A stretch of 64,000 nucleotides of DNA from Cenococcum geophilum (lineage: Eukaryota): positions 14,818,001-14,882,000 of the forward strand of contig CP158635.1 of NCBI GenBank assembly GCA_050273025.1. Reading direction: 5' to 3'. This document shows positions 3,001-48,518 of the stretch, piece by piece (position 1 is the stretch's first letter; the number at the start of each line of letters is the position of its first letter). The notes beneath the pieces are model-generated. The model was given only the letters and a program-made list of their open reading frames with translations, did no database searches and was not told where the DNA came from. The position numbers were made by a program, and so were the translations under genes.

Positions 3001-3620
3001 TTAGCTAGAATGGCAACTATAGGAAGACTTTAAAAATGTAAAGGATCTAATTAGCGACTTTTACTACGCGAACCTATAGAAACTGGGCCTAAGCAGAGAC
3101 TTTATACCTAATCCTTTATAGGAGCCCTTATAGAGTTAAACCGTTATATATTACTACGTAAGGGCAAATTGCCGTTAGATTGCCGTTAGATTGCAGTAAA
3201 GTGCGATTATATAACCGGAATATCGTTAAGATGTCCAGGAACTTCGACCGGCGGTTAAAGTTATTTAATTGGTCAGATTCTTAGATGCTAAGCCCTATTA
3301 TATAACGTTATTTTAAGCCTTTAGTGATACCCCCCTTTTCTTCTTTTTTATACCTTAAGTATCTCTTCTATATATATATAGTAACCACAGCGTCGCCAGA
3401 GCTCCGCCTTTATAAGAGGGGGGGTAGTATTACGGAACCCTACCGCAGGGGCCTCTATAGGAGAGCCCCGTGCTCTCGCGTATACCTCGCGTATAGCTTA
3501 TGTCAGCTACGCGTAGGTATATCACCTCCTTACGCCCTCGACCCTTACGATCAATCGCGCAACGTCTTATAGACTCCTCGAATACATACGCTTTATAGCC
3601 ACTACCCCCGTCCCGTAACA
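1..3620 (+). mobile_element. Ty3/Gypsy chromovirus LTR retrotransposon (3' part), RIP-inactivated
   Basis: Manual translation gives RT YLDDILIYS (~543), RNase H, the integrase zinc finger and core, and a chromodomain-like WTVKRIINSK..W.YY (~2905-2980), with many TAA/TAG stops. A polypurine tract AAGAGGGGGGGTAG directly precedes the 3' LTR. The 5' part lies outside the window. Confidence 0.93.
3428..3620 (+). repeat. 3' LTR of the first Gypsy element (193 bp)
   Basis: Follows the PPT. Termini are TATTACGG (RIP of TGTTACGG) and CCGTAACA, which form an inverted pair. Confidence 0.85.
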
Positions 3621-23110: not shown

Positions 23111-23155
23111 AAGTGCACTAAGTGCTAGCTTTTTACAGCTGCTTACTTTAGACTT

Positions 23156-23500
23156 AAACCCGCCCTAAGCTTAGTATATTCCTCTATTAAGTTAATAGCT
23201 AACCCCGGCGTCTTTAGTTGTTATAGCTTATAAGCAAACCCGCCCTAAGCTTAGTATATTTCTCTATTAAGTTAATAGCTAACCCTAGTGTCTCTGGTTA
23301 GTATAGTATGTAAGTAAACCCGCCCTAAGCTTAGTATATTCCTCTGTTAAGTTAATAGCTAACCTTAGTATCTTTGGTTGTTATAGCTTATAAGTAAACC
23401 TGCCCTAAGCTTAATATATTCCTCCGTTAAGTTAATAGCTAACCCTAATATCTCTAGTTGGTATAGGATGTAAGTAAACCTACCCTAAGCTTGGTATAAC
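23156..23500. repeat. 80-bp tandem array, 4 copies plus a partial
   Basis: Units start AAACCCGCCCTAAGCTTAG at 23156, 23236, 23316, 23396 and 23476. Confidence 0.95.
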
Positions 23501-23549
23501 CTAATTTTAGGACCCTTTATTTTTAGCTAACCGTAGTTAGGGGATCCTA

Positions 23550-24080
23550 GTTACGTTTAGAGAATAGCTATATCTAGAGAATTATCGGATGCCTAATTGG
23601 CCTAAAATGACCGGTCCTCTTAGTAGCGCTAAATAGGAGAACTATGTCTGGAGAACTATGTTTGGAGAATTATCGGATGCCTAATTGGCCTAAAATAACC
23701 GGTCCTCTTGGCAGCGCTAAATAGGAAAACTATGTCTGGAGAACTATATTTGAAGAACAGCTACGTCTAGAGAATAGCCACGTCTGGAGAATAGCTATGT
23801 AGAGGGTAGCTATGTCTAGAGAACAGCTACTAGAGAACAGCTATATAGAGGGCAGCTATATCTAGAGAACAGCCACTAGAGAATAGCTACTGGAGAATAG
23901 CTACTAGAGAATAGCTACTAGAGAATAGCTACGTCTAAAGAACAGCTACGTTTAGAGAATAGTTATATCTAGAGAGTAAGAACGCTACGTCTAATAGCTA
24001 TATCTAGAATAGCTACGTCTAGAGTAGTTACGTTTAGAGAATAACTAGTCTGACAAACGGTTATATTTGGAGAATAATAG
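23550..24080. repeat. 13-17-bp array (TCTGGAGAACAGCTACG-like) with an embedded 88-bp duplication
   Basis: Many GAGAA(C/T)AGCTA units. ATTATCGGATGCCTAATTGGCC occurs at 23581 and 23669. Confidence 0.9.
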
Positions 24081-26968: not shown

Positions 26969-28788
26969 CTATATAGAATTGGTCTTTAGAACCTAATGCT
27001 TAATTTTATAAACTATTTAAATATGGCTTTTAAAGTATAGAACGCCATTTAATATTATATAGCTTTCCTTACACACTAGATAACTATAGAGAATTTTTAC
27101 ATTTAGTACAAATAAATGGAAATGTTTATCCTTAATATAATCCATTATTTTAGCTAGCCGACTCTAACAGAAAATCCTCTATTAGTAAGGTAAATACTTA
27201 TTACCTATATAAAATAGACACTAGTAAGGGTTATATTTTAAAGGGAATAAATAAGGCGTTGCCAAATCTTCCTGCTTTATAGCTATCCCTTTTAATAAGT
27301 TAGAAGGCGTATTTCATTATTAAGCCTCTTAACGTAAGTATAACTTTATAAAATTTTAGATAAAATCAATCCGCTAGTTAAGGTTTACTAGCTCCGCAAG
27401 ATCTTTATATAGGCTGTAAAGTAATTCTATAATGCGGGCCCGCTGCTCTAGCTAGTAGGTAACAGTGGCGGCCTAGTTAGCAGCGCTTAAATTATTAGGT
27501 AATACGCCTTTGCACTCCTCCTTAAGCTCTATTATATTATTATTTATAAAATATACTTCTCTAGCCATTTATTCTGCCTTATCTTATAAACGCTTTATCT
27601 TTTAATTTAGAGTAGCGTTTACTTCTTTTTTCTGTTAAATAAGATCTTTTTTATTAGAAAGAGTAAAAGGCTTAGAGCTATTTTATATCTGTCTTATTTT
27701 CTCTATTAAAATATCTCTCTACTAACACAACTTAACTATTTTTAGGTGATTTGTAATTTCGCATAACTGCTCCTTAGTTAGCTCTTTTAGCGCGAGCGGG
27801 TTAAATATTAGGCTTATATTTCCTATAACCTTTACTAAAGCCCTATTAGATAGCTTGTCTAAATATACTACCTAAATATTATACTTAACGCGCTAGTTGA
27901 TATAAAACTAAAATATACTGTTATAAGAATGGCCCATAACCTAGTCTCGTTCAGCGGTAGTTGCTATATTTATAAATTTGGGTAAAGTTAGCCTAGATCT
28001 ATAGAATAAGTAGAATTAAGCTAATAGGGAAGAGTATACTATTAACAGCATTTCTAGTGGCGTATTAGATATATAATTGCAATAATAGCTGCTTAAGACC
28101 AACATCGCGTCTTAGTCACTTTATATAATAGTAAGAAGTTTTGGCGCGCAGGGGTATAGGGCTCTTTTTAGACGCGGAAGTTTGGCATTTATAATATTCT
28201 GGTTCGCAAAATATAGGTTTATTTAGCTTACTCTCCTTCCACCTAAAGATTTTATATAGTTTTTAAGCGGGAACCTAAGCACGTAGAATTTTTTTAGGGT
28301 TTTGTATGGTTAAGGTAGCGAAGGCATTATTATAAAGTCCTATAGCAACTATAAGGGTAATAGGATAAAGGAAAGGGTTAGGATTCTAATATAATTTGTA
28401 TATTTTCCTATAAACCTATTAGCCTATAAATATAGGGAAAGTAAAATAGGAATACTTGTGGTTAAGGCTTTTAATCCTCTCCCTTTCTACGGATTATTAT
28501 AATAAATATAGCCAGTACTATATAATCTCTAACCTATACTATAAGTATTATAATATCCTAGTAGAGTATTAATTTTAATTTATTTATATCCACGCCCGTA
28601 AAAGAGATTTCGTCCTTATTATCCTCGCCATTATTTAAATACGCGCTTTTATATCCATTGTTAATTTTATTAATATTATTATAAGAGTTAGCCTCTTTTA
28701 TATTACTCCCTATAACCTTATTAACCTTCTGTCGGTATCACCTAGGGGTACTGCAATTGCAATATAAGGTAACTGTTTCTTGATTCAT
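26969..28788 (-). pseudogene. DUF3435 tyrosine recombinase (Starship captain-like), RIP-inactivated, apparently short at the N-terminus
   Basis: Minus-strand translation gives RKGED(R)KP(Q)P, FRWKESKLNKPIF, L(G)RDVG, TTAERD(Q)VMGHS..F(Q)FYIN (~27890-27965) and a C-terminal (Q)CLF(C)IG..LP..R.FC..(H)...C..(H)FKSH...(H) zinc-finger region. There are about two introns and a candidate ATG at 28788. Residues in parentheses are de-RIPped. Confidence 0.85.
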
Positions 28789-29044
28789 TCGTGTCTTTTC
28801 TTTCATCTACTAAAAGAGAAAGAAAGGGGTAGTAAAGGTCGGGCTATCTGTCGGGCCGTAGGTGGTCAGGTGACCTACGCTACGCATACAGCCCCTACCG
28901 CATACGCTCTACGCCATTTATCTAATAGCAATATTTATAACCTCTGCTCGTATAAACACCATCTTTATAGCTATATTAACTAGTAAGTATAGCTAAGACC
29001 CTATATACGTTAGGAAAAAATTTACTAGTATTTAATTTTACTTT

Positions 29045-29460
29045 TCTGCCATTTTAGCATTTTCTAGCATTTCCTAGCATTTCTAGCATTTCCTAGTATT
29101 TAGCTGCTAAATGCGGTATTTAGAATTAAGTGTTCGCACTTAGCTGCTAAATACAGCATTTAGAATTAAGTATTAGCATTTAGCTACTAAATACGGCATT
29201 TATAATTAAGTGTTAGCATTTAGCTACTAAGTGCTAACTATAAGATTACTAAGCATATATAAAAGTATAATTTTTATTATTTTAATATTTTATATACACT
29301 TTATTAATATTACTAAGCATATATAAATATATAATTTTTATAAATATAATATTTTATATACGCTTTATTAATATTACTAAGCATATAAAAAAGTATAATT
29401 TTTATAAATTTAATATTATTAATAAAAATAATATATTTTATTAATATTAGTAAACATAGG
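29045..29460. repeat. 40-bp palindrome-containing array followed by a 64-bp AT-rich array
   Basis: TAGCT(G/A)CTAA at 29101, 29141, 29181 and 29221, within the hairpin GCATTTAGCTGCTAAATGC. ATTACTAAGCATATA at 29245, 29309 and 29373. Confidence 0.9.
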
Positions 29461-29859
29461 GGGCGGGGCGGTATTATAAAAAAATTTACTAGTATCTTAA
29501 ATTAGGTTTATGCTAATTAAGTAATTTTAGCATTTAGCCGCATTTAGTTGCATTTTGCGGCTATATACTACACTACTAATAATAATGCTGTAATTTACGG
29601 CTAAACGCTGCCTTAATAATAAAGGTGCTATAAGCTGCAGCTTAATACTCTCTTAGAAATAATAATACTAGAAATATTTTAGTTAACTAAGTTTACTATA
29701 TACGCTATACTACTACCTATAAGTTACTAGAAGATACGTCCCTTAGCTTATATATACGCCACTATATAATTATAATAGGTTTTGCTATATAGCGGCTATA
29801 TATAGTATTTAAAACTATCTATAGTTATATTATACTCTTATAATCATTACCAGTATTAG

Positions 29860-32800
29860 ATAGTCTTAGTATCTTCCTTCTTATCTTAGCCTACTTTTAA
29901 GCTTAAATCGGCCTTCTCCTTATATACCAACTTATACAGTAATAACGTAAATTTAGTTAACTTTAATATCCTTTATTTAATACTTAACTTCTAATTAGCT
30001 ATAATAGTATTATAGTAAACGGGCTTAGTCTATCCTTATCAATCTATTTAAGCAAATAGTTACTTTACCTCTAAGAGCTTATAGCTTAGCTTAACTATAA
30101 TAGTATAATTTACGCGCTATAGGTTAATAGATAGCTTAATTAATATAAAGGTACAAAGTAGGATCTACTTAGAGTTATTAGTGTTAAAGGTTTACCTAGC
30201 CTTAGCTTTCTTAATATTAGATATACCGGCTATATAATAGAGCACCTTATCTTTACCGTATTCTTTATATAGCCTATTAAACTAATAAGCTAGCGTAAGA
30301 GGTAAGTAAGTAGTAATAATAATCTTACACGCTAAACTATCTATTTATTTTTCGATATAAACATAATTATAGATTTTTTTAGCTTAAAAGAACTTTATAT
30401 TCTCTTAAAAATAGCGGTTAAGTATATTAGTAAACTCCTTACTAAGTAGGTTAGTAATCTACTTAGTGATAATTAGGTCCTTAAGTACGCAACTCTAAGT
30501 TTTTAGGCGTTTGTTATTAGACTTATTAAACTTATTAGACTTAATTATAATAGGGGTATACTAGTCCTAGTATTAGATAACCTAGGCTATACTTATTACC
30601 ATTTTCGCGTTAGTATATAACTTAGCTTAGGTAAGTTTTAGTATCTTAGGTTTAGTATTTAAATTACTACTATCTTCCTTCTATATAGCTAGAAGTTCCT
30701 TATATTAGCGCCTCTACTCTATTCTTACTTAGTCCTCTATAGCTATAATTATAGCCGCCTTAGTGTTATTAGGGTCGGCTTATAACATAACTAATTTAAA
30801 ATAGCTATTTTTTAGGATAAGCTTTTGCTGGTTAAACTAGAGTATTAACTCCCCTCTATATATCTAAAACGTTAAAATAACTATACGGAAAAATACAACT
30901 AGTTCGCCGAATTTCCTATCTACTATTACTCTAACTAGGTTAGTTTTCGCATCCTTATAAAGACGGTTAAATTCCTTCTTCTTTAGCTAGATATTTTCTT
31001 CTTTAAGCTTAAACAGTACTTTAAACTCCGTTCCCTTTAGCTTATTAGCTTCTTTCTACTCTAGCCTCTTTAATCCTACCGTAATAAACCGCATTAGTTA
31101 TATTAGGTTTCCGTTATTAGGCGTATTAAACGTACCCTATATAGCAGGGCTGCGATTATATATAATACGGTACTCCTTAACTATATCCTTAATAAATAAT
31201 ATTAAGACTTTACTGGTTGCGTTTAGGTGGCATTTATCCTAAAGGATACGCTTAATCTATATTATACTTTTCAATTTCTAATACATTCTAGGGGATTAGC
31301 TATTTAGGTGTTTCTATATATTAGTTTATATAGTAATAAACCCGCGTATTAGTTGTGTGGTAATATAATTTCGCGTAGTAATTAAAAGGAATTAGGCTAA
31401 GTATCTTAGCGCTAATAGTTCTATTACATTAGGGGTAGGGTAATAATTATTCTTAAACCTAGCTTTACCCTACGGGTATAATAGAAGAGCCTTACCAACT
31501 AAATATATATCGTTATTATTCTCCCATTATTCCTTATTAGTCCACTTAAAAGCCTTATAGATTTGCGGCTATTTATCCTTTTTTAGTTTACTAAATATCT
31601 TAACTTTATTATAGTTAAGGGCGAGAATTGTAATCCGGGGCGGGTTAGGGCGCTTTATAATCGCGCCGTCTTATAATATTACACTCGCGTTTTTTAGAAA
31701 TCCTAGTAGGCCTAGGGTTAGCATAAGGACGACTAAATAGCCTCGTTATAGGTCTATAGGGTACAGCTTTTTAGAGTTATCTTTGCAGTAGTATATAATC
31801 GGCTATATTACTACCTATAGGCATTTTATATCCAGCGGATGCATCTTAGGTAGGTAGTAGGTTACATCCCTAGTAGCTTAGGCCTCTTAAATATCTATTA
31901 CATTCTAATAATAAAAGTAGTTTATTAGCTATTAAGTGATTATTTATATAGTCTTACCTGCGCTAGGTTCGTCTACATAGATACTACTTTCTTTAATTAT
32001 CCTCTTTTACTTAAATACCTAAGCTATATATACTACTTAGTATAGGCTAAATTTAAAGCCTAATATAAGGCCCTAATTAGGGAGTTTAATTAGGGCGGTT
32101 TTAGAGAGTACTTTTAATAAGATAAGTAGGAAATACTTTAGAGTAAGCAGAAGATCTACCTCCATTATATATACTAGTATACTATTTAGGTTATCCTTCC
32201 TAGCCTTATAAAGCTGGGCTAAGAAAGTTTATTAATTAAGTTCTTCCTCTATATTTATATTTTAGTTATTATTATTAACTAAATCCTTATCTTAGTTGTT
32301 ATTATTAACTAAATCTTTATCTTTATCTCTACTTTTATATTCTTAGAGTTAGTATAATATAGGAACTAATTATTATATCCACTAGTACGTTACGGTAATT
32401 TGCTATCCTCTATGGTAATATCTTAAGGGATATTAATAGTTAGTAATATAGCAGTAGAGTCGTCTATTATATCATTAGGCTAGTATATACCTTTAGGTTC
32501 AGTAATAAATTATAGCAATTTACCGTTATCTGCGGTAATTTCTCTAGTACCGCTGTTACTTACTAATATAGGCTTATAGGTAGATAGGTTACGTCTTCCC
32601 TTTACTAATTACCTTCTGCGCATAACCGGCTTATTATTACTGTTTTTTATAAGGGTACCTACTGTTAATTCTGCTTAAGGGCGTTTCCTATTTCTATTTA
32701 GGTTAGCCTTGCGACTATTTAACTTCTTAGGCGCGGCCGGCTTACTTTTATTATCCTTTACTAGGGCACTTATTACCAATCTTAGTTAAGGCTACTTATT

Positions 32801-33950
32801 ATATCTACCTAATTTAGTCTTACTATTATCCGATTTCTTATATCTAATAGGCTCGCCCTTACTATTTTCCTTAGAGTTATATATTGCTAATTCTAAATAA
32901 CTCCGCTTTTTATCTTCTCCTAGTTTACTTTTACCGCTAGCCTTACGCGGCGTTAGGACTTGCTAGCTATCTTTTACGCTATATTTATGGCGTTTAGGCG
33001 CCTTAGATTTAATAGCTAGTGGTATATTATTAGCGGCAGCGACTTAGGAGTTTAAGCTAAAAGGTAAGAGTAATGCTATAAGCATAGCCTCCTTTATACT
33101 ATTTCTTGCTATTTCGCTAAGAGCTATAATAAGTGTGCCCTCTAACCATATTATAAGGTTTTTATATCTCTACGGCAATATATAAATATTCTTTTTAGGT
33201 AAACCGTTAATATTAAGCTCTATATAGGCTTATAGTTCCTCCTATAGCTTACCTAGAGCTATATATAGGTTTCCGCTTATTAGATATAAGACTTAAACTA
33301 CCCTAACTATTAACCTACCCATTAAGCCTATAGATTAGATTTTAATTTTAATATCTCCTATATTAATTACGTTGCTTACCGCTAGGGTTACTAGCTAAGG
33401 CAAAGGAATACTATATAGTAGGGTTATAGTAACGTCTATAGGCTATATTATATATAGTAGCTAAGGTAGCGTTATCTCGTCTTATGCTTTGGTCTTTAGG
33501 GGTAATATATATTTACGCAGAGCGTACCTACTCTTAGAGGTACTTAGTACCCTCCTTACGCGATTAGAATAAGCACTTCCTATAATTTTTAAAATTATCT
33601 ATAGTTTTTAATCCGGTAGAGCATTAGTAAATTATAAAAGTTACTTATAAAACTCCTTAACGTGCCCTTCTTTTATTATTATAGAGTTACCGCAATATAT
33701 TACGTGCTTAGGCTTAACTTTAATTATAATATCTTTAACTATCTCTTTTAGTCTATTATAGTTTTTAATGCTTATTTTAAAGCCTTAAGCAATATCTATA
33801 TCTTTAATCGGCTTTAGGTTTACCTTATACTATATATCTAGCTTTACCTATAGTTACGTTATTATTAAGTCGCTTATTTAGTTAGGTACGTATAATATTA
33901 CGGCATATATTAAGTAGAAGGTAACTATTAAAGTAGGAGGGCTTTATACG
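29860..33950 (-). pseudogene. SNF2/SWI2-family ATPase with a long N-terminal extension, RIP-inactivated
   Basis: Motif I (GG)I.VDEP(G)AGKT at ~31950-31990, Walker B RIL(W)D(E)CH at ~31225-31250, motif V INL(Q)R(A)N and motif VI (R)ID(RQ)G(Q)TKPV at ~30015-30135. A stop-interrupted but continuous-looking frame extends up to ~33.9 kb. Confidence 0.85.
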
Positions 33951-34331
33951 GTAGCTAGCTAGCGCTATACTAGTATAACTCTAGTATTAGATATAGTTAG
34001 AGGTTAGTTATAGAAGAGATAGAAGATAAGGTAAGTAAAGTTAATTAAGAAAAGGTAAAGAGGTAAATCTTATAATTACCCGTATATACCTATATAAAGG
34101 TAAAATTGGCTATAGTTTGCTATTACTAGTTAGGGTAAATGCGGCTAGACTTAATACTATATAGTTAAATAAGGGCATAATTATATAACTTATAGGGACT
34201 ACCCTACCTAGCCTATTTAGGGCTAGGTAGCGGTTTAGTACCGCTAAACTTTTATAGTTTTTAATATAAGCAATTTGTTAAGTACCTATAAAGGGGTAGC
34301 TAGTTATTATAGTATAATAGAATATAGGAGG

Positions 34332-34657
34332 TTATAGGCGTTACTATATTTCTTATTATTATATGGAGTTAGTATATATACGCGCCGCTAGAGTTAAAGG
34401 GCTAGCCTATATCTATATATGTGGGCTCTATTACTATAAAGTGTTTACTATATAATAGGTAGTATTTCTAGTAAATGGTGATATATTATACTTATTATAG
34501 GCGTTACTATATTTCTTATTATTATACAAAATTGGTAGATATACGCGCCACTAAAGTTAGAGGGCTAGCCTGTGTCTATATATACAAACTCTATTACTGC
34601 AAAGTACTTAGTATATAATAGGTAGTACTTCTAGTAAACGGCGACGTATTATACTCA
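34332..34657. repeat. 163-bp tandem duplication between the divergent helicase genes
   Basis: TTATAGGCGTTACTATATTTCTTATTATTATA starts at 34332 and again at 34495. Confidence 0.9.
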
Positions 34658-35739
34658 CTTTATAATCGCTAGTGTTATTATTATACTATATAGTACTTAA
34701 GGGCCTACTAAATAAGTTTATCTAAAATAATAATTATCTAGTGCCTGGGATTTACGTCTATATATAAATATCTAGTGCTTATTTAAACGCATATTTACCA
34801 TAAAAGGTAGTAAGAGGTTTTATATTTTATATTATAAGTTTATATAATTAATAGCATTTTGCGGCATTTTATAGTATTTTAGAGTATTTTAGGATAGTAG
34901 ATATATTGTATATACTAGTATCTAGCCACTTAGTAATATTAACTTATCTTACTATTTATCTATTTAGTATTATATAAGAGGTTAGTATTCTACTATAGTA
35001 TTTATTATATTAGAGTCTCTTAAATTTAATATCTTTATTTTAAATTTATCTAAAACTATATATAGTTTTATATATCCCACTCCCCACCTAGTACTCTAGT
35101 AAGAGATTATTTAGTTAATAATACCTTTTCTCTTACTAATTAAGGGAGGAAAAGACTTATACTTTCTAGCAGTAGTAGGCTATGCTTATTAGTGATATTT
35201 TTAATAAATTATAGTATTTAAGTTTCCGTTTACCTATAACGTAATTAGCCTACCTATAGTAAAGTGCTTTTACTTTACTACTTACTTCTCTTTTCCTTTA
35301 CCCTTCTATATATTTATATACTCGTATTATAAACTATAAGAGCTTAATAGTACTAAACTATTACCTAGCCTATATTAAGAGATAGGCTAGGTAAAGTAGT
35401 CCCTATAACTTATACTATACCGCGTCTTTTTTTATAGGTTAGTCTTATTACTATAAATTTACCCTTATACGCGTTTAACCTATATAGTATATAACTATAT
35501 ACTTTGTCGCCAAGGTCTTACTTATATAATTTTATTAGGGCGCGCTTTATTTTCTTACCTTTACTAGTTAACCTAACTCTACTAACTACCTACCCTTACT
35601 CCTACCCTATTAGTATCCACCTTTATAACTAGTGCCTTTATAGATTTATTTAAGCTATAGAGCCTTATAATATAGTAAGTTAGCTGCCTTATCTTTGGCC
35701 TTAGCTATATAATAGAGAATCTATATTTACTAATATGTT

Positions 35740-38700
35740 TATATAGACTACCGCTTAATACAGCCTACTACTAAAATAGACCTACCTACTAATTATTTTA
35801 TAACTTATGATGTTAACTACGTTTATAACTATAAAAAGTTCATTAAGGGTGTTATAGTTTTTAAGATTACCTTAATTATAGCAGCTATAGGCTCTAGTAT
35901 CTTATAAGGTAACGGTAAAGGCCCTATACTTAATTAGCCTCTTCTTTTAAAGCTTAGCAGTCTATACCTCTTAGCTAATAATACTCTAAAATGCTATCTC
36001 TATCTATCTACCGGCCATATACACGCTAATTATCCTCTTAAGAAAGCTTCTTAACTTTATTATAGCTGTAGTAAGGCTAGTTATCTTAAAGCTAACTACC
36101 TTAACCCTATATATAATAATTATAGGGAAGCTAGTTATCTTAAGAGTAACTATTTTAGTATAACGTATAACTAATATAGTGCTATAGGCTATAGAAAGCG
36201 AAACTATCCCTAGCTATTAGGTAATAAAAAAACAGACTTGCCTAAACTATAGCTCCCTAAACTATTAAACTATCTTCTATAATTAGGTATATAAGAACTA
36301 CAAAGTTATAGGGTATAATATTAATAATTATATAAGTAGACCTACTTTAATTCGGGTAATAGACGCCACAACCGCTTTAGGCAAGGTAAATGCATTAGGT
36401 ACTACTACTTTAAGTATAGCTATTACCTCTCCGTCGCCTAAACCTCTTAATATAGCTAGCTTCTATCTAGTAGTATATAGCCTAGTAGATAATTTAAACA
36501 TCTATATAGAGGATAGCGATTCCGTAATAGCTAAACCTTTAGATATACTCTAGCTTCTAAATAACAACTACCTTATAGTTTAGTTTATTATGCAAATTAT
36601 TAAAGAGCATATTATAGTATATAGCATTACATTTTAGGTGTTTTATAAGACCAGTAAAATGCCTACTTATTATTTATATAAGACGGCGTCTATCTAATTT
36701 ATAAATACTAATATTACTAGCAATGTTAAGGTTAATACTACTAATACTGCTTCTCTAGTTACTTAACGACTATTATATCTAACTACGCTTAAGTATCTTA
36801 CTTATATTCTCTCGCAAGATGTTATAACCCTATAACTTTACTATATTAGGTTTATTATCGCCTTTAATAAACTTATACTAGGTACGCGCACGTTGCTTAG
36901 TAAATACTTCTTTATTAATAGGGACTTTGGCCTATTTACGCCGTAAATCTATAAAGCTTAGGACATGCTGTTAAATAGTCCTATAGTTATTGTCCATTTC
37001 TTTACGCTAGGCACTAAATGGCTTAATAGTTATATCGCGAGCCTAAACGCGAGCCTATAATAGTAGAGCGTTAATAATCCTTTAGGTTGCTAGTGGAAGA
37101 ACTATAATATAAATATCTAGCTTAGTATATAGCTTTTAGTAGAGGACCAACTATCATATAAAATCCCCGCGAGGTATTAGTTTGATAGCGTTCTTAAGTA
37201 TTTTACGGTCTAGTTTTATACCGCAGTTATAAGCCTTAAGGCCGTTAATTAGAACCCCTAAGTACCTACTATTATTTATCTTATTACCTTCCTAGGTAGC
37301 GCGGACTAAGTCTACTACGCTACTATTTAGATAGTTAATAGTCTTACCCTTCGCACTAACTCTATTATTAATATCTTATTTTTAGGTAAAGACGTAGATA
37401 GCTAGGCCAGCTAAAAAGGAGTTATTATTAATACCACTCCCTTTAACTCTAGCTATAACTACTATACTTTTATCTTTTAACCACAGGTGGGTTATAAGTT
37501 TATACTAAACCCTATATTTGCTCTAGAATATATCCTAAGCAGTAATAACTTTATAATAGTTAGGAACCTAAGTAAAGCCCTAATTACGGCATAGGGCATT
37601 AAATATCTTATAACTAAGTATATTCCTAAGGTTAGAATCTCCTAAGAGATTAATACTCTACGCTACCTATAGCAAGGAGGCGATAGTTTCTATATTAAGC
37701 GCTAAACTATGCTATCTAACAACTTCATAGATCTCCTGCGTATTAATTACTTTAACTGCAATATTGCTAAGTATAGGAAGAACTTAGTTAATAATGCCCT
37801 TAAGGCCATCTTACTACTACTTAACGAAGAGTAAACAGGTGCCTATACTGCGCTTAAATATATAATAGGCGGTATTTTGCTAATATAAGGCCCTGGTAGT
37901 GTTAGGAAATTAACCTTCCTAATTATTTTAGTACAATACTAGTATTAACTTAGGTCGCCCTAGTAGGATCCTACTAGAATCTGGGTCCTATCGCTGCTTA
38001 ATTACCAACTAAATATGCTGGCTAAGATAATTAATAATGCGCTTATAAAGGACTATAAGGCTGTCCCGCTAAATTTCCTATTATCCTTCGCCGCTATATG
38101 CGCTTAACGGAAACTAAGGTCTATAAGTAGGATGCCATTATATAGCGAACAGCGGCAGGTATAAATACTCGTCCTAAGTATTTTAAGGAATAGGATAACT
38201 ATGCTATAATTAATAAGGACGCGTCTATGCTAAATATAGCATTCCTACTCTACCGTAGGTTTAAGGCTAGTAATACTACTAGCTTTAATAAGCAGTTATA
38301 GGTTATATATTTGTCTAAAGGTTAGTAGTTATTACGCCTTATAGGTGTTTTAGATAGTAATAAAAACCTATATCCTATTATAGACCCTAATATAACTAAA
38401 TACGCCAAATTCCGCTAATACTTGTACTAATTTGCGCTTAGTAATAATATAATATAAGATAATAAGATAGGATTAACACTTACGGCTAATATAGTTATTA
38501 TAAACCTAGCTAAAAAGGCTAATGTTATTCTTATAATACCTAATATAGTCTTACAGACTTATATATATTCTATTAGCGCTATATATATAGTTTTCTATAA
38601 TAAGGCTAGAAAGGCGTTTAAGCCAAACAGTTTTACTAGGTTTACCTAGAGCAGACCATATTTAATCTAGGGAGGTCTATAGATCTAGGCTAGTAACCCT

Positions 38701-39831
38701 GTGCCTTAGGTTTTCCTTAGTAATATATACTAACTAAAACCAATCCTTAGTCCCGATTTTAATAATCCGTTCTACTATTAGAAATTTATCTCCCTTTATA
38801 CGCGTCTCCTTATGGCTAGTGCGGATACGGTGTAGTTCTCGCTGTAATATTAATTTATTAAAGACATTATATATCTTATAAATACCGCCCTACCATATAG
38901 CTAGCTTTAGATAAGCCTAATAGTTAAGGACTAAGAGCAGTCGAAGCTAGCGGCGAGCTTTTTTAAGGATATGCTACGCTACAACCACCCTATTGCCTTT
39001 CTTGCTATTAATAGTACTATATAGGTAAACGAGCTTAGCTAATTAACGTATAACCTAGTTTACGCTTAACGCGTATTTTAGGTAGCTATAGCGCTAATAG
39101 ACTTTAGATTTAAGCCATTAGAGGTTAGCCTTGCCGTTCTATATATAGCCCAACTTGCCATCTACTCTGCAGCGCTATATACGCTTAAAAAATGGTGCTA
39201 CGCCTAGTAAGATAGCAGTAAGTGGCGGGAATTTACGCCAGTAGTTAGCGAGATTAAGGTCTTTACCGTTAACGGCATCTAAGGCAGCTAGGTAGAGTTA
39301 TTAGTATATAATATAATAGTCGCCAGTTCGCTAAAATTTATTTAGAATATAGTAAGGAACCTTTTTATAATTACTAGACTATAAGCGGGCCTTATTATTA
39401 TTAGTAGTTCCTAGGTAGTTTATAATTATTATACTAGCAATAAGACCTTTATAAATACCGCGTATTATAAAATTAAGAAGTAGTGTAAAAATAGTAAGGT
39501 ATTTATTAACCTTAAGAATCCTAAGCAGAAAGAGCACTTCTAGCAACTTATTGCCCTATTTAACGTTAACAAAACTATATATTATATCTACCGCTAGCAT
39601 ATAGCTAATTATACGCCTATTTTATATAGTATAGATATTAACTTTAATATTACTATCCCTAACTTTATAGGTATAGTAAATATTAGTAGTACTAATAATT
39701 ATACTAAAGCGTAGAACAAGGCTAATAAAGAGGGCGCTAATAATAACGGCTAGGGCGGTGCCGGTAATAATAGCGGGGATAACAATAATGGAGAGGATAT
39801 TAGTGGCGTCAGAATATAAGGAGGGTAGTAA
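35740..39831 (+). pseudogene. Upf1/DNA2-like SF1 helicase with three N-terminal CCHC zinc knuckles, RIP-inactivated
   Basis: Three C-x2-C-x4-H-x4-C knuckles (de-RIPped) at ~36058-36210. LNEE(Q) and I(Q)GPG(G)V(G)K(S)T at ~37820-37915, VF(HDE)A(G)KA at ~38590, FL(GD)I(HQ)LKP at ~38715, TV(D)GI(Q)G at ~39265 and motif VI TR at ~39375. Stop at 39829-39831; the start is uncertain. Confidence 0.87.
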
Positions 39832-40932
39832 GAATGGATATTATAGACTTTACTAGTAGCAAGACCCTTAAATAGGGATATTAGATAGAAGTTAAGAGCG
39901 GTAGTAGCTATAGGCCTTTAACATTTATAATTTTACTACAGCACTAGGTAAAATATGGTATATTATAATATTATATATTACAGCTAAATAAAATATACTT
40001 TTAATAATTATAATCTCCAAAATAGATATGCGCATTATGGTAAAGATAGCCCAATTTATAAAGCCTAGTAATTTTAGTTTCTATCCCTTATAGGCTAGTA
40101 GTTAATTAATACTAATCTATAATCTAGATTTTAAGGGGTTATTTGGTTATAATCTATCGCTTTTAAATCTAAACTAAAAATCTAGCAGAAAGAACGCGTT
40201 TTTTTTCGATTTAATACGCATCTATAGCTCTACGGATTGTACGGATATATGCAATCTAAAGCCTTTAGATTTAATTTAGAGTTTAAATAAGAAGCTTTAA
40301 GCTCTTAATTTAAACTAACGCTAAGACCTTAGTTTAGATTCTGTATATAGTAAAGTTACTAACTTTTTAGTAACTTTTAGCGTGTTTTTTAGAACATCAA
40401 AAATTTATAGCTAAAGTTAAGTTAAACTAGAATTTAACCGAATGGTCGCCTTAAAATTAGATTAGAGCTTTAAATTAACTCTATTTTAAAGCCCTTATTC
40501 TAATCTAAACTTATAACTAAATATTCCCTAAGTACTTAACTAGTTAGATTATAGTCTAGATATCTTGCTAATAACCGTAACTATTATTAATTACTCTCCG
40601 TATAGTAGTATAGGCCGCCTTTATTTTCGCTAAACTATAATAGCCTTAAATAGGATCTAATCCTTTTCTTACTATAGCTGCCGCTAAGGCAATGTGACCT
40701 AACGCCCTCTCCTGCTTATATTAGGTATGCTATTCCTAATATTAGCACGCCGTTACTATATCTTAAAAAACTTATCGCTAATGCTATAGGCCCTTAGAAT
40801 AATACCTGTCCTATTATACTAGCTACTAGCTAGTAAAATACAGGACAAATATAATGTCTATATAGTTGCCCCTAATAGAAGAGCCTGTAGTAAAGGCAAT
40901 TCGCTATACTATATTTGGATAACTTAAGATTA

Positions 40933-43900
40933 TATCTATCTATCGCAGTTACGTAAGGGGATATTTAATTTTTATATAATTGGGAGGCGTAGGGCTATAA
41001 GGTCGCTCTAGGGCTAGTTCTTAATAGTTTTGCTAGTTCCTAGCACTTAAATCTGCTAAGGATTTGCCCTAAAGCGGCTAGATGTCCCTAACTATAAGCC
41101 TATAGCTGCAAGACTATCTAACTATAGTGGTCGCACTAAGGCTAGTTCTTAGTGGTTTTGCTAGTTCCTAGCACCTGCTAAAGAATTGCCTTAAAGCGCT
41201 ATCTATATATAATGTATACTAAGTATAAGGGATAGCAGGTAGGGAAAGCGAATTAGCCACGTAGTGACTGCGTTTGATATTCGTAAATATTGCAGGAGGT
41301 CTTAGTATTATACGTTGCTAAGGTGGATGCTGCTAAGCAATATATAGACGCTAGTATCTATCTATTGCAGTTACGTAAGGGGATATTTAATTTTTATATA
41401 ATTAGGAGGCGTAGGGCTATAAGGTCGCTCTAGGGCTAGTTTTTAGTAGTTTTACTAGTTCCTAGCATTTAAATCTACTAAGGATTTGCTCTAAAGCGGC
41501 TAGATATCCCTAAGCGAAGCTCCTGCGCCTAATAAGACATTACTATATTCTGCTATATTCTGCTATATTATTATATTCTACTAAATTCTACCACCTTATT
41601 ACATTCTGCTAAATTCTGCTATATTCTACTAACCCTAAGTTATAAGCTAACTAATTAGGATTTTCTATGCCCGGTATAGAAAATTACTATTAGCTTACTT
41701 ACTACTAGTGCCTTAGCGGCCCTCTTAATATCTTAACCTGCTACCTAGTAATCCTTACGCTAAAAGCGGTATACTACGCTGAAAGTAAGAGTTAAGGTAA
41801 TAGAGGTTAGTGGTTTTAGTTCTAATATATAGGCGGAAGGCTTCTAATAACTACCAACCTAGCTGCTGAATTTGCTAATATAAACACCCTAAATTTTTAG
41901 CGAACTGGGCAGCGCCCTAGCGGAAGAAGTAGTTTAAGTAACTACTTAGGTTAATCCTAGCAGCTACTAGATAGGAGGAAAGGATTTTATAAACCCCTAG
42001 AGAGGTAAAGGGTTTACTATTAAGACTAAATAAGGAAGAGTTAAGGGGTTAAGGGTCCCTATTAAACAGCTTTATTATAACAGCGACTAGGCATAATAGG
42101 CCGCCTACTGCCGCGATAGTGACGTTAACGCCCTAGTATTGCTTATTGGCTTTGCTCTATTTAAGGCGGAATATTATCCTACTAGGCGTAAAGGTAATAT
42201 TATATTGGGTAGCCTTTTTTGCTAGAAAGGTTGTTCGGTTCTTAAGCTCCGCCGTAGTATACGTAATTTTACTTATCTATAGAAATCTAGTAAATGCGAG
42301 GGTAAATATGGTATTAGTGTTGACATCCAGTAGCAATAGGCTGTGTGTTACTACCTGGACTAGAATATCCCTAGTAATGGGTTGCTTATCCTTTTTTGCT
42401 AAGGGAGAGATAGTAGCTGCTTTGGCGAGTAATTGGTGTACTATAGGATCCTTAAATGCTATAATTAAGATGCTGTAATTAATGTGGCGCAAGCGAATTG
42501 CGGAGATATAGGCTTATAAGGTTTTGGCCTTAAGCCTATCTATCTATAGCTAGGAGGTACTAAACGCGCGGTAGGTAATCTGTTCGCCTAGTTTATGCGG
42601 CTTAGCTAGGTAGGGGGAGACTCCTTTAAGTGCGCAGTATAACTCCTAGCTGTTAACTACTAAGGAATAGTTCCTATGGGTTGCTAGCGTAAGGCCGTTC
42701 TAGAGAAGGAGCGCGTAAAGGTTAGATAGCGCGTTAATATTATTTTTAAAGTTTATAGGCGGTTATAAGTAGTCCGTTAGGTTTACGGCACCTATTAAAA
42801 ACTTATTAGCTTTAGTAGTAATAAATTAAGGGCCTAGTATAGGTAGAACTAATAGATAGCTATAGCCTAGAATTAAGATAGTATATTAGCTAAGCTATTT
42901 AAATTACCTAAGATCTACTTCGTGGATATTATAATATTATAAGCTATAGTAGCTAGTATGATTTTGCGGAGCGATTTATTTGCTACGCTATAAATAACGG
43001 TCTTTTTAATACCCTGGTGAACTACTATACTATTAATATAAATAGATAGCGCGCTATACTGCTAGTTAGTAGACTATAGATTAAATGCGTAAGTAATAGT
43101 ATACATCTCTTTCGGATTAATATAGTCTACTTATTAACTGGGCTTAGGCAATATACTAAACGCCTAAGATTAAGGGAGGTTGGCTATATACTACTGCTAG
43201 TTATTCTTATATTTAAGTTTCTTAAAAAAGTAAAAGCCGCTAAACCTAAACTAGGTAGAGGCGTTAGTAAAGAGATAAATATAGGTACGCTTGACGTTAT
43301 TAAAGAATAATACCCTATTACTTATAGTAAGTAGGTTAAGCTAGATATATAAGTCACTTCGTAACTTAGTGCTAAATTGCCTAGGTTTATACTTATTTGC
43401 TAGAGTCTTTAGCTAAGTAGTAATAAAAATTTAGAGGAATCTAGAGTAAGATTAACTAAGTTTAATTATATAGGCGTACTATACAAGGTAGCCCGCAAGC
43501 TACTAGGCTTAAAGGAATAATAATAAGCCGTATTAGAGTGCGGTAGTGACTTTTTTAATAGCATATAATTGTTTTTGTGGTAATAATCGCGTCTGTATTT
43601 ATATGGTATTAATAGTATATCCTAAAACTTTAATAATAGTTTCTGCTATATCTTTAGAGCTATTTTAAGGGATACCTAGGGAGTTAGTAATAGAGATGTA
43701 AGTCTAGGTAACAGCCGCTAAGTTGTTTAGGTTAGTAAGGATAAAGATAAAGTTATTTAGGTAGTATTTTACCTTATAAGGTAGTTATAAATAGAGTATC
43801 TAGTGCAGGCCTTCTGCGAAGAGGTTAAATATAAGCGGCGCAGTTTAAAGACTAAAGGATAGGTAGTATTTTTAGTAGGTAACACCTTCCTAGGAGAAGC

Positions 43901-45716
43901 CTATTAATATTCTTACCCTATAAGATAGGGGGACTATATAGAACGCGTCTTTAATATCTTTTTTAAGTAGTAAATATTTACGACCTGCAGAAATAACGTG
44001 GGCTTAAATAGTGGTAACTATAGTGTATACTAGTGCTCCATATTCTTCTAGGATTGCGTTATTAACTAAAGATGCTAGTGGAAAGGAGAGATTATAAATT
44101 TAGCGGTATCCTCTATCCGATTTTGGCACTAGGCTAAAAGGTAAGACTATAATAGGCCCTGTCGCGATTCTAATATATCCTTTTTTAAGGTCTAATATTA
44201 TCTTCTTAGAGATAAGGTTGGCGTTATCCTAAGAGAAGTTGTGGTTTCTATAAGATCTTAAAGTAGGGATAGATTTGGCTCCTATCTTATAGCTATAGGT
44301 TAGGATGCCTACTAAGATGGCTAGTAAATTGCCTAGGTAGTTAGATAGAAGGGAGTGCTACGCTAAGATTCTTAGGGGTAATAGAGAGTAGTAGAGAGCC
44401 TTCGCCTTTATAAAGGTAGGGAATAATGGTAACGTATTAGGCCTAGGTCCTAGGCGTATAATTAAAGTTATTATTATTATTATGCTAGACCCTACTTTAT
44501 AAGGTTCGCCTTACTATTCCTAGGCGCAAGCTTTAGATAATATAGTATAATCTTTACTACACTTTAAGTACTTATGCGGGTATTTGCAAGCTATATTATT
44601 GCAGCCTCTACTATTAAATTTATGGTAGGTATTAGAGGTATAGGAGGTATCTAATCTAGGTTTCTTTAAGGCAGTAAAGCTAATAGTACTAGACATTGTG
44701 AGGTATGGCGCTATATACTAGGCTAGCATTTACTAATTAGCGGGCTTTAGTTAGCCATTAGTTATTATAAAGGTGTAGTAGTTAAGTGCTAAATTAAGTA
44801 TACAATCTACCTAGATATACTAGGTTAATAAGGTATAAATTATATTTATTTAGAGAAGTATACTAGCAATAAAGTCCAGCGGGCATGTATAAAGGGTGCT
44901 AGTAATAACTATATAGTTAGTAAAACCTTTAAACTAGACGCCTTTATCTATAAATAGCTTCCTATCTACCTTTGCCTTTCTTATAACTAGAGTACTATTC
45001 TTAATCCGTGTCTTATTAGCGATCTTAATTTAAGCGGTATAGACTTAAAGATAGGCAAGGTTTACTAGATTAAAGGTACCCTTAAAAATATCTAAGTAAT
45101 CCCTTTTTATAACGCTAGGAAGGCGGAGTTTAAGTAACTTTATACTAGGAGGGAGAGGCTTACTAAGGATATTAGCTATAGTAGCTGTTATAATGGCCTA
45201 TAAGGCTAAAGCGGCTAAGCCTAACTATAATTAAGCCATTTAAGCTAGGTAGTATTTATGCTAGCAAGCCTCCTCTACTAGGCGGGCTTTGCGCTCTTCC
45301 TTATACTTCTAAATCTCCCTTTTATCTTGGGCTTGTTCCCTTTACTCTTTAGTAATTTCGCGCTCTTTTACGGCAGTAGCGTATATATTAGCCTTGGACG
45401 GCATTATAGGATTAATAGAGGAGAGTGTAGCGGTTGTAGACGATGGTGTAGTTAAGGTAGGTCGTCTAGGTAGGTTTACTTATTAGGATTATATACGCGT
45501 ATAAATCTCCTAGTTAGTTATAAGCAGTAATAGCGTTATAAAATAATTCTTAAATAAATAAATAATAAATATACAATAAATATTAATAAGTTTAGCAATA
45601 TTAAAAGCGAATTAGCCATGTAGTAACTGCGTTTAATATTCGCGAATATTGCAGGAGGTCTTAGCATTGTGCGTTACTAAGGTAGATGCTGCTAAGCAAT
45701 ATATAGACGCTAGTAT
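40933..45716 (-). mobile_element. Ngaro-type tyrosine-recombinase retrotransposon, structurally complete, RIP-inactivated
   Basis: Split direct repeats: A1 45604-45716, B1 41358-41513, A2 41245-41357, B2 40936-41091. Gag with a Cys/His finger (~44550-44630), RT/RNase H (~42.8-44.3 kb), and YR with KQPITRDIL..FTLAF.(G)FL(R) (ORF 42277-42492) and H(S)FR.GAAQ..IQQLG.(W)..EAFRLY (~41825-41935). Confidence 0.92.
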
Positions 45717-46800
45717 ATACAGGTAATAATCTTAGGGCTTTCTAGTGCGATAGGAGGTCTTACTACAAGGTAAACTTAACTAAAGTTACTATCTTTATAT
45801 AGATTAGATTAACTATAATTAATTAATACCTTTTAGCCCGCCTAGTAAAATATATTACGCTAGAGATAGGGCTAGATAAACGTTAGTAATATATTATAAT
45901 TACGACGGACACCTATATACTATCTCTACGGATAGCCGTAAATATAACCTAGCCCACCCTATAATAAACTGCCCTTAATAGAGTAGCCCTTAAGGCCCTA
46001 TTGTTTCGGATAAGTATAGTCTCTATATAGGCGGTCTATATCTACTCCTTATTATAATCCACCCCGGCCTCTAAAAACATCTTAACTAGTAGCTAATATT
46101 CGACTATGCGTAGGTCTTAAGGCGTATTAGACAGCGATACTAGACTTAAGGCTACGTCTATACTTAGGACTAAGTTCGTACTATCTAGTTTCCGCCTATA
46201 AAGTAGTATAACGAGTTATTTAAGATTATAGCTGCAGTTCTATATATAGTTAAGCTAGGACAAACTCTGTAAGTTTGCGGTAACTATATGCCCCCTTTCC
46301 GTATCCACTATATAGTTAATACTAGGCCGCCCTAGCACCTTTATCTTCTTATATATATTTAACTATATATAGGCTAGTATATTTTATATAGCCTTGTATA
46401 CCTATAGCGCTAGTGCCTTTTTATATTCTACTACCTAACGGATAACTTTCTGGATTACCTGCTTGTATAGTAAATCGTTTAGTTATCCGCGAAATAAAAT
46501 ATATAAGATGCCGTCCTTAATAATAACCTACTTAAAAGTCCGCTTAATAGTATTAAGTCTTTCCGCAGTAATATCTAAGCCGGTAATAAGCTATATATCT
46601 TTTCACGGGTCTATAGCGCTTGCAGAGTTATATTATACCACATTTACGGTATACTACTATCGTATATCGCGTCCTATTGTAAAAAATAGTCTAGTATCCT
46701 AAGTAGGGAATAGTAGTGTTTAGAATTCTATGCTTAGTATAATAGAGAGGCGGCGCAATATTAGTAATAAGTAGAGTTTCCTAGCCTAACGTGACGCGAT
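45717..46800 (-). pseudogene. Unidentified RIP-inactivated gene divergent from the Plavaka transposase; probably continues at ~40600-40935 beyond the Ngaro insertion
   Basis: One protein-like minus-strand frame of over 300 codons is broken almost only by TAA/TAG stops. No domain was recognised. Confidence 0.5.
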
Positions 46801-47099
46801 CTAGTATAAATTAGCGTTAAATATAATAGGTTACGCTATCTAGCACGTTAATATCCACGGATATCGCTATACTCTTACTATACTCCTCCTATCTTAACTA
46901 GCTTATAATATAGTATAAGCTATAAACACTACTTTAAATATATAGTTCTACACAGATATTATTTTCGGCCCCCTTCTAACTAAACTGTAGTAAATTATAG
47001 CTTAATGCGGTAATTTATAAATAAGCTCTATCTAGCAGTAATATAGAAAGTGTGGGACTAAAGTAAAAAGTATAGGCGGTTTAATTTGTTATAAATAAT

Positions 47100-48518
47100 A
47101 TTATTTAAGATAATAGAAATGGAAGAAGGGTAGATATAAGGGCGTTAATATTAAAGAGATAAATAATAATGCACCCTTACGCTATTAAAGCTGAGAGGAG
47201 TATTAGATAGCCTATTATAGGGCTAAGCTAGAGCAATATAATAAGTGGCTACTTATATAATATATAGACGACAATATACTATTATAATATTAAACCTTAA
47301 AAGGGTATTATATAACTAATTATAAGGCCGAATTAGAGTAAGATAATAAGTAGCCACCTATATAAGCTCTAGGCGATAATATTATTAATAAGCTAAATAA
47401 CAGGGCTACGGATATACACTATAACAATAATTCCGTAATATTTAATAGGGTATATAACCTAGTAATAGTTAAGACTAATTAGTAAACTTTAACTGGAATA
47501 TCTATAGATGTCTTTTAGACTAAAATATTTAAAGAGGCCACTGGCCGCGCTATAGGAAAGCCTCTGGAATGGAACTAAGGAAATCCGCAAACTATAAACG
47601 ATACTATAATAGTATGCGATATTATACCGCGTATTAAGCGTACTAGCAATATACTAGATAAGACACCTCCCCTATTTTATCTATTTAGTAGTAAGGCAGA
47701 ATACGCATAAGTCTTATAATAGGTAAGCTATAGGACTTTTAACCGCGCTATTAACGAGTAGTTTAACGATATTAGGCTTTAGGGAGTGTTTACTAACCAT
47801 TTTTCTTACTAGAGTGCTAATAATATTAAAGTAAAACTACTTTTAAAATAGATGTAATCTAAAAGTAATTAACCGTAGTAGATTAAAATAATTATAACTA
47901 TAGGGGACTAGTAGCTGCTAGTATATTACCGAAATGCTCTAAAGATCGTATCCTTCTTTATTAGTTACGGCCCTTTTTAAAGAGATATAACTTTCTCGCT
48001 AGTAAGGTAGTACTTATTAGTAGGAATAAGAATATATAATAAGCTTAACACAGTAGACTAGTAGTAGGAGACGTAAAAGCAGCTACTGCTTAGCGTAACC
48101 ATAGTGCTAATTATATTAGCTAGCGATAAGACCTAACTAACATAACATACCGGCGGCAAGAAAGCATAGCCGCTCTATATTTTAATTGGAAATATTAAAC
48201 TACGCGTTTAATAATCTGTAAATTAACTAGCCCTATTACTGCTTATATATCTCCCGGTCTATATACCTAGCAACTAAATAATATAACTAGCGGTGCAATA
48301 TAAGACCCTTACGGCTATCCTTAAACGTATGCTTTAGCGACAACCCTACTGCTAATATAGTTATACTAATAATGCCTATAGCGTTAGAGAAAGCTAATAA
48401 AAAAGAAGTACGTCTTTTATATATAGATGGCTAGGATTAACACTACTTTCTACTTTTAGCTATATTTATGGCTAATTATAAAGAATAGGTTACGCTTATA
48501 GGTATTAAGAGTGGCTGG
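47100..48518 (+). pseudogene. Plavaka transposase (CACTA/Mirage/Chapaev-related), RIP-inactivated and 3'-truncated
   Basis: RIYN(E)LNT.D(WWW)ET(Q)KQL...TIV(P)IILASDKT(Q)LT..GGKKA(W)PLYI.IGNI at ~48030-48196. After a probable intron comes DG..(R)H(C)F(P)LLA.FMA(D)Y.E(Q), up to ~48518. Confidence 0.88.

Follow-up and report, generated by a model that had tools for sequence, protein, structure and literature searches.

Known Plavaka elements and other accessory-gene transposons

Among described transposons, the closest to the element reported here are Plavaka elements with accessory genes, namely TET/JBP genes in basidiomycetes and PAG1-3 in red algae. The present element is a giant Plavaka transposon in a 64,000-nucleotide stretch of the Cenococcum geophilum genome (GCA_050273025.1, contig CP158635.1, positions 14,818,001 to 14,882,000 of the forward strand; this whole stretch is called the window and its own numbering is used throughout), and its gene set, which pairs an SNF2-like ATPase with a Upf1-like helicase, appears to be new for Plavaka.

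PlavakaA elements have TGT..ACA termini and a 2-bp duplication (Kojima 2025, PMC12730594), and PlavakaB elements have CATCA..TGATG termini and a 2-3 bp duplication (PMC12730594). The families presented there come from Agaricomycotina, some of them carry TET/JBP genes, and the marks of Plavaka are C(2)C and H(3-4)H motifs in the catalytic region together with a DDE triad; in the main text of that paper the term 'SNF2' is absent and 'helicase' occurs once (PMC12730594). The C. geophilum element resembles PlavakaA and PlavakaB in its PF18759 transposase, which has CxxC and HxxxxH within the domain, in its terminal inverted repeats and in its possession of accessory genes. It differs in the nature of those genes, which are an SNF2-like ATPase, a CCHC-knuckle Upf1-like helicase, a DUF6532 gene and a small open reading frame (ORF) rather than TET/JBP, and in its host, which performs repeat-induced point mutation (RIP).

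Giant Plavaka elements of 17.4-19.1 kb with the accessory genes PAG1-3 have been reported from Bostrychia moritziana, the products being one of unknown function, an N6-adenine methylase/SET protein and a ParB-like/2OG-oxygenase; in the main text of that preprint 'helicase' is absent and 'SNF2' occurs once, as a host gene-family expansion (bioRxiv 10.1101/2025.02.11.637652). The present element belongs to the same size class (~19.7 kb) and likewise has a transposase with several accessory genes, tandem repeats near an end and plausibly chromatin-directed proteins, whereas its accessory genes are different ones and the Bostrychia host is a red alga, from another kingdom.

DNA transposons with a helicase of their own include AcademH, KolobokH and Helitron (as cited in PMC10799480). 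These belong to other transposase superfamilies and encode DEAD/Helicase_C or Pif1 helicases, usually one per element, whereas here a superfamily 2 SNF2-like ATPase is paired with a superfamily 1 Upf1-like helicase in a Plavaka element. The giant KDZ elements of Cryptococcus, as far as their published description goes, contain ORFs without recognised domains. A full-text literature search, with Repbase and the supplements of PMC12730594 and of the Bostrychia preprint outside its scope, did not turn up an SNF2 or Upf1-like gene in any Plavaka or EnSpm element, in keeping with an earlier note on this sequence, made from the sequence alone, whose author knew of no described element with this gene set.

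The window copy and its relatives

Window positions 29008-48515 (+) very probably hold a dead copy of an autonomous cut-and-paste transposon of the Plavaka lineage, ~19.7 kb long when complete, with two motor proteins as accessory factors whose likeliest job would be counter-silencing. The full element consists of 26-bp terminal inverted repeats, subterminal arrays and five genes: an SNF2-like ATPase (-), a CCHC Upf1-like helicase (+), a 278-amino-acid ORF (-), a Plavaka transposase (+, one intron) and a DUF6532 gene (+, several short introns). The window copy was mutated by RIP and then split by a retroelement, and it also lost its right 4.9 kb. Its left end is intact and its right end truncated. 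Without the nested insertion 14,735 bp remain, in agreement with the ~14.7 kb given in the earlier note; that figure holds for the remnant in the window, but the full element measures 19.7 kb, the window copy being truncated at 48515 and lacking the DUF6532 gene and the right terminal repeat.

A relative of the helicase, searched against metagenome contigs, gave ten loci, four of them short (1.0-2.1 kb) and six long and RIP-mutated (L001, L002, L004, L006, L008 and L010). Within its reach, each of the six long loci is collinear with the window (85-87% identity), in blocks corresponding to window 29.64-40.14 kb and 40.57-40.94 kb, followed directly by 45.71-48.515 kb. The order SNF2, helicase, small ORF, Plavaka transposase is present in full in L001, L002 and L004 and within their reach in L006, L008 and L010; order and junctions are the same in 5/5 loci running from helicase to transposase and in 5/5 extending upstream to SNF2. 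The earlier proposal that these four genes form one mobile unit is thus supported by six collinear copies, by left ends common to the window and L004 and right ends common to L001, L004 and L010, and by differing flanks; the helicase pair in these copies is linked to Plavaka.

Positions 1-48000 form a graveyard of RIP-mutated repeats with several other elements, and nesting occurs both in the window (40940-45712) and as insertions in L006 and L010, a setting in which an SNF2-helicase repeat could have come to lie beside an unrelated Plavaka fragment. Such a chance mosaic is contradicted by the constant order and junctions (5/5 and 5/5 loci), by the inverted repeats that enclose 19.7 kb in L004 and by the occurrence of three of the proteins on ~20-kb contigs, and is highly improbable. 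Contigs of 20005 bp and 19995 bp carry members of the SNF2, helicase and transposase protein clusters, and contigs of 12438 bp and 11654 bp carry SNF2 and helicase members, co-occurrence on one contig being deduced from the equal sizes.

L004 is a complete element of 19,669 bp, bounded by both terminal repeats. The right 4.9 kb that are absent from the window copy hold the C-terminal 56% of the transposase, the DUF6532 gene and the right terminal repeat. Since 5/5 other loci extend ~4.9 kb past position 48515 while the window enters non-RIP host DNA, with a shift in RIP indices, the window copy is cut off on the right, and the truncation point lies at 48515-48516, where RIP-mutated element meets host sequence.

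Because the other copies have the same gene order and shared ends within differing flanks, the genes are those of a multicopy element and not victims of RIP leakage. RIP is known to leak into neighbouring single-copy DNA, which is what would have to be assumed if the helicases were single-copy host orthologues; the copy number refutes this explanation, as there are at least seven copies with ~85-87% mutual identity and independent RIP patterns, and it can practically be dismissed. The helicase genes are therefore multicopy, as had been supposed, rather than single-copy host genes.

RIP in the window and its direction

Positions 1-48000 of the window are AT-rich (GC 0.24-0.45), and composition is normal from 50 kb on. 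RIP bias is present in 48/48 one-kb bins of positions 1-48000 (TpA/ApT 1.43-2.15; (CpA+TpG)/(ApC+GpT) 0.17-0.74), compared with values of 0.70-1.02 and 0.99-1.52 from position 50001 on. RIP mutation of the element DNA, which the earlier note had taken as a sign of repeated sequence, was thus confirmed, but it does not delimit the element: the RIP block extends from the start of the window to 48 kb, so RIP alone cannot set the borders.

The direction of change is evident from two short un-mutated loci. Relative to L007 (GC 0.49), 417/449 mismatches in the window are C>T or G>A and eight are the reverse, with C>T changes falling in the contexts CpA (225), CpG (132), CpT (34) and CpC (26); relative to L005, 132/138 mismatches are C>T or G>A. 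Overall, 93-96% of the differences between un-mutated copies and the window are C-to-T or G-to-A, mostly at CpA and CpG, and in an alignment of seven copies 4882/5489 polymorphic columns are pure C/T or G/A. When RIP-type changes are set aside, only 32/2033 positions differ between L007 and the window, so the window copy is a recent relative of intact elements.

RIP causes transitions and not indels, so the frame is preserved over long stretches of the mutated genes; no ORF of at least 80 amino acids survives at window 29-42 kb. With a local consensus of seven copies, identity to the intact proteins rose to 82-89%. It regained no complete reading frame (longest open stretch 193 amino acids) and served solely for comparison with the intact proteins.

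The SNF2-like ATPase and the Upf1-like helicase

The two large genes are invisible to direct searches of the window. Six-frame translations with stops read as X (Pfam, 4000 amino acids per frame, E<=0.01) gave solely Plavaka, DUF3435 and a weak ABC-transporter domain, with no SNF2 and no helicase; among thirty 800-amino-acid pieces of 29.4-41.4 kb searched against Pfam at E<=10, 29 matched no family and one gave a noise match. A regular-expression search of the window translations found no helicase motifs and no CCHC knuckles, and phmmer with the window helicase frame gave 0 matches among PDB sequences at E<=10. The identity of the SNF2 and helicase genes in the window rests on near-intact relatives, which were found through X-read frames in a large protein collection. 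A practical lesson is that RIP-wrecked genes unseen by Pfam and PDB can be identified by reading through stops and finding a near-intact relative.

The SNF2 gene proposed on the minus strand was recovered in this way as a divergent SNF2-like ATPase, RIP-inactivated, at 29889-33862 (-), located by tblastn of the 1328-amino-acid protein P0002. P0002 was found at E 7.4e-173, and its residues 1-507 and 522-1328 align to window 33862-29889 (-) with 59-61% identity. In Pfam, P0002 matches SNF2-rel_dom with 27.2 bits (cut-off 24.9), over 53/290 profile positions, and Helicase_C with 27.3 bits (cut-off 23.5). Motifs I, II, III and VI are present (GAGKT, DECH, SGTP and QLFARIDRRGQ), and its neighbours in the Atlas are SNF2-rel_dom clusters, a lead at family level only. 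Five full-length variants of 1323-1332 amino acids are 92-97% identical, all open and with intact ATPase motifs.

The zinc-knuckle Upf1-like helicase predicted on the plus strand was likewise found, at 35776-39801 (+), as a RIP-inactivated gene for a protein with six CCHC knuckles and a Upf1-like superfamily 1 core, the intact relatives having 1355-1377 amino acids. P0001 (1355 amino acids) was retrieved at E 1.4e-161, and its residues 1-1347 align by tblastn to this interval with 56-60% identity. It matches zf-CCHC (E 2.2e-21) and AAA_12 (71.6 bits, E 9e-20) in Pfam, with AAA_11 at 22.1 bits, below the cut-off of 27. Its six C-x2-C-x4-H-x4-C knuckles lie at residues 73-185 and are degraded in the window copy; the helicase motifs comprise Walker A, DEAG and TVDGIQG, and among solved structures human UPF1 and yeast NAM7 come closest (E 6.7e-13 to 7e-9). 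Four full-length variants are 93-97% identical, all open, with intact ATPase motifs.

Both genes align to the consensus in a single frame each and so are intronless. They are divergently arranged around a 1.9-kb intergenic region with a 163-bp x2 tandem repeat at 34332-34657, which is also present in other copies. A word-indexed search for relatives of either protein returned the element's own cluster only. In the Atlas, P0001 has as neighbours nematode clusters named 'CCHC-type domain-containing protein' with AAA_12/AAA_11 and 1046-1179 amino acids, a lead only; the layout of knuckles plus helicase may occur in other, possibly mobile, contexts.

The small ORF, the transposase and the DUF6532 gene

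The gene of unknown family noted on the minus strand is a 278-codon ORF at 45843-46677 (-), whose frame is conserved without indels in 6/6 copies. Pfam searches with six copies and a PDB profile search gave noise only. Its N-terminus resembles that of the SNF2-like protein (hhalign against P0002 residues 3-103, probability 69%, E 4.4e-5), and an N-terminal module common to the two proteins points to evolution within the element.

The Plavaka transposase occupies 47021-48515 (+), with exon 1 at 47021-48325, a 58-nucleotide intron at 48326-48383 and exon 2 from 48384, and is cut at about residue 479 of 1085, inside the Plavaka domain. The fragment at ~47915-48260 (+) matches PF18759 with 55.8 bits (cut-off 26.3; E 5.5e-15), so the transposase had been correctly recognised. 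The X-read frame of L001 led to P0026 (657 amino acids, Plavaka), which has 73% identity to it and lies on a contig of 19995 bp; besides the element's own cluster, the single match to the L001 frame is a Mycena protein with 22% identity. The P0026 cluster includes two 1085-amino-acid forms, P0038 and P0039. P0038 matches PF18759 with 253.7 bits (E 3.3e-75) over profile positions 9-325 of 325 and maps by tblastn to window 47021-48325 and 48384 onward, leaving the gap of 58 nucleotides; on the consensus, too, the transposase aligns in two pieces in different frames on either side of the intron. Within its Plavaka domain (residues 275-573), CSIC occurs at residue 482 and H-x4-H at residue 488, the comparison with the Plavaka marks being limited to these two motifs. 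The two full-length variants (1085 amino acids) are open. Downstream of the transposase, in the stretch beyond the end of the window copy, L001 has a DUF6532 match at E 1.2e-7.

Transcription of intact relatives

The un-mutated L007 stretch occurs in runs of ten studies, which include root and soil metagenomes and RNA sequencing libraries labelled fungus metagenome. Contigs of four runs were aligned to L001 at 80% likeness, a level at which joints need care. RNA-library contigs cover 30/30 bins of L001 in run X9 and 29/30 in run X12, and ~95% of their differences from L001 are A>G or T>C, which is the un-mutated state. X9 and X12 contigs skip 14354>14412, exactly the transposase intron as placed by tblastn, and also several stretches of the DUF6532 region, two of which, of 47 and 48 nucleotides, have GT..AG ends, whereas a contig of DNA run X1 spans the transposase intron unspliced. 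Since the introns are missing from the RNA-library contigs, intact relatives are transcribed and spliced in the transposase and DUF6532 genes. The SNF2 and helicase genes are covered by RNA contigs with 20-fold depth differences, which suggests that these intronless genes are transcribed as well. Raw RNA reads of run X24 were uninformative, with 54 partly fitting reads only.

Ends of the element and evidence for transposition

The left terminal inverted repeat is a 26-bp sequence, CGTTAGGAAAAAATTTACTAGTATTT, at 29008-29033 (+), defined by RIP-degenerate pattern search and alignment of ends. A RIP-tolerant pattern search found the 26-bp sequence (CGTYAGGAAAAAATTTACYAGYATTT) nine times, five at outer ends and four internally. 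The outer ends are window 29008 and L004 3067 on the left and, in inverse orientation, L004 22735(-), L001 19486(-) and L010 20832(-) on the right; all five read CGTYAGG.., giving termini of the form 5'-CGT..ACG-3'. In these five ends homology stops exactly at the 26-bp repeats, and the flanks outside are unrelated, on the left between window and L004 and on the right among L001, L004 and L010. One internal copy of the motif, in direct orientation (family D16), lies at 29472-29500 (+), with an equivalent site at L004 3456.

Tandem arrays adjoin the left repeat at 29042-29417 (10/19-bp GCATTT-type, 40 bp x3.4 and 64 bp x2.8), within the 29.0-29.6 kb where arrays had been noted, and are also found in L004, L008, L001 and L002; short GCATTT-type repeats occur in both subterminal regions. 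In CACTA/En-Spm transposons, subterminal arrays of short repeats in both orientations lie beside short terminal inverted repeats, in a multi-gene layout. The present element is like them in its subterminal arrays, related DDE transposase and multi-gene layout, and unlike them in its accessory genes and in the lack of a CACTA terminus; the earlier note had likewise pointed to the arrays of CACTA-related elements. The search for ends that the earlier note had proposed accordingly gave 26-bp inverted repeats but established no target-site duplication.

Several observations weigh against an autonomous Plavaka transposon with two motor proteins. The six long copies all stem from a single metagenome's contigs, and both element ends are in view at one locus only, L004. 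The flanks of this sole complete copy, ..CCTTAGT| and |TAGACAGC.. (..TTAGT | TAGAC..), do not match cleanly, and no target-site duplication could be established from them; 4/5 outer ends abut TA, yet TA is the commonest dinucleotide of RIP-mutated DNA. The 5'-CGT..ACG-3' termini are unlike those of either PlavakaA or PlavakaB, being one base off the former. The left subterminal region is a variant one in L001 (88-189), L002 (127-228) and one un-mutated RNA-library contig, where a ~100-bp right-terminus copy, with its 26-bp repeat in right-end orientation, stands in place of ~280-500 bp; the contigs begin in the left arrays, and in X9 the variant appears as a joint 19486>190 on L001. As to the genes, the SNF2 assignment rests on Pfam scores that are marginal, P0002 gave no match among PDB sequences, and RNA libraries may contain DNA, so transcription of the intronless genes is suggested rather than proven.

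The lack of a resolved target-site duplication, the single metagenome and the single copy with both ends would also suit copies that arose by segmental duplication or recombination of one region instead of transposition. The exact end of homology at the 26-bp repeats in five outer ends with unrelated flanks argues otherwise, as do the complete Plavaka transposase encoded by the element and a DNA-run contig in which an element end abuts the interior of another copy, which looks like self-nesting; duplication is therefore very unlikely. The autonomous element would move through its transposase acting on the terminal and subterminal repeats. Empty insertion sites were sought among the flanks within reach, and none was found.

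The left junction of L001 and L002 was also considered as a nested self-insertion and rejected: L001 1-95 and L002 1-135 align to the left arrays, not to the right end, with scores of 98-125 vs a shuffled maximum of 59. In DNA run X1, summed contig depth is 154 in the right terminal bin (L001 18866-19486) vs 7-42 elsewhere; this depth is not a copy number, and it hints at extra terminus copies such as short non-autonomous derivatives. The right flank of L010 (20833-22102) matches window 17121-18390 at 80% from the first base past the terminal repeat, and also window 274-1362 at 64%, so this copy sits within or next to a repeat of a different family, one with members in the window as well.

Possible roles of the motor proteins

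The two motor proteins would be element-borne accessory factors rather than passive cargo. By analogy, their most likely job would be to keep the chromatin or transcripts of the element accessible, that is, counter-silencing, with the processing of transposition intermediates nearly as likely; the leaning towards counter-silencing comes from other Plavaka elements, whose accessory genes are directed at chromatin.

Capture of host genes by large DNA transposons does occur, and it is conceivable that the SNF2 and helicase genes are passively captured cargo that contributes nothing to the element: the two proteins are strongly diverged, neither has a characterised role, and intact transposase variants are more conserved (95-99%) than those of the accessory proteins (92-97%). 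On the other hand, no copy that extends to the two motor genes lacks either of them, and in four to five diverged variants their frames are open across more than 1300 codons, with intact ATPase motifs. Full-length variants of SNF2, helicase and transposase remain open at 1.5-8% divergence, at which, by a rough estimate, neutral drift is expected to bring several stop codons. The word-indexed search gave no relatives of either motor outside the element's cluster, and the N-terminal module common to the small ORF and SNF2 speaks for evolution within the element. Passive capture is accordingly unlikely.

A more specific form of the counter-silencing role, put forward tentatively and still doubtful, is that the SNF2-like ATPase and the CCHC-Upf1-like helicase make up an element-encoded counter-defence module. 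The remodeller would keep element chromatin open, and the helicase, through its single-strand-binding knuckles, would disturb RNA- or homology-based defence (quelling, meiotic silencing or the RIP homology search). If this were true, a 20-kb transposon could spread in a repeat-destroying fungus, and the pair would do with motor proteins what the TET/JBP and VANC anti-silencing genes do in other transposons. Plavaka and related elements are notable for carrying genes directed at chromatin or DNA modification, TET/JBP in mushrooms and methylase/SET and oxygenase genes in red algae. To these the family adds another solution, a pair of ATP-driven nucleic-acid motors, in a fungal host where RIP is active, and since intact, transcribed relatives occur in root, soil and fungal samples, the hypothesis is testable on a natural active element.

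Nested insertion and neighbouring sequences

The element in the window is interrupted by a 4,773-bp insertion at 40940-45712 (-), a retroelement foreign to the transposon, in which split direct repeats of families D7, D9 and D11 occur. In 5/5 copies spanning the site, window 40939 is joined directly to 45713/45714, so this is a nested insertion specific to the window. It had been labelled an Ngaro element; its nested state is confirmed by its absence in the five copies, but the label draws on a weak RVT_1 match (E 0.005, 17 bits, cut-off 29.6, at ~43610-44042 (-)) and the split direct repeats only, and a profile search gave no recombinase match. At its junctions (40933-40946 and 45705-45719), the empty site ..TTATATATAT|AGGTAA.. 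seems partly repeated, as ..TATATCTAT | .. GTATATAC|AGGTAA, which could reflect a short duplication that RIP has obscured; a retroelement of the recombinase type would not be expected to make one. Other copies have nested insertions of their own, at 564-8343 (7.8 kb) and ~17795-18448 (~0.65 kb) in L006 and at 3464-10001 (6.5 kb) in L010.

Just outside the left terminal repeat lies a DUF3435 fragment (tyrosine recombinase of the Crypton or Starship-captain type) at window 28038-28400 (-), E 2e-9, which belongs to another RIP-mutated repeat. Starships are giant elements of Pezizomycotina that have a DUF3435 tyrosine-recombinase captain as the first inner gene. The present element is similar in being a large cargo-carrying element of a filamentous fungus with a DUF3435 fragment adjoining its left end; it differs in that this fragment is outside the terminal repeat and not common to the flanks of other copies, and in having inverted repeats and a DDE transposase.

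Other repeats in the RIP block at window 1-29000 include the direct pairs 5711-5997/11710-11996 (96%) and 13695-13883/20935-21123 (94%), tandem arrays at 23155-23978 and a 177-nucleotide inverted repeat at 19271-19654. On the right, a host gene at ~50100-50400 (+), ~1.6 kb from the truncation, has a weak ABC-transporter TMD0 match (E 3e-4, below cut-off), and ORFs are intact from ~50 kb of the window onward.

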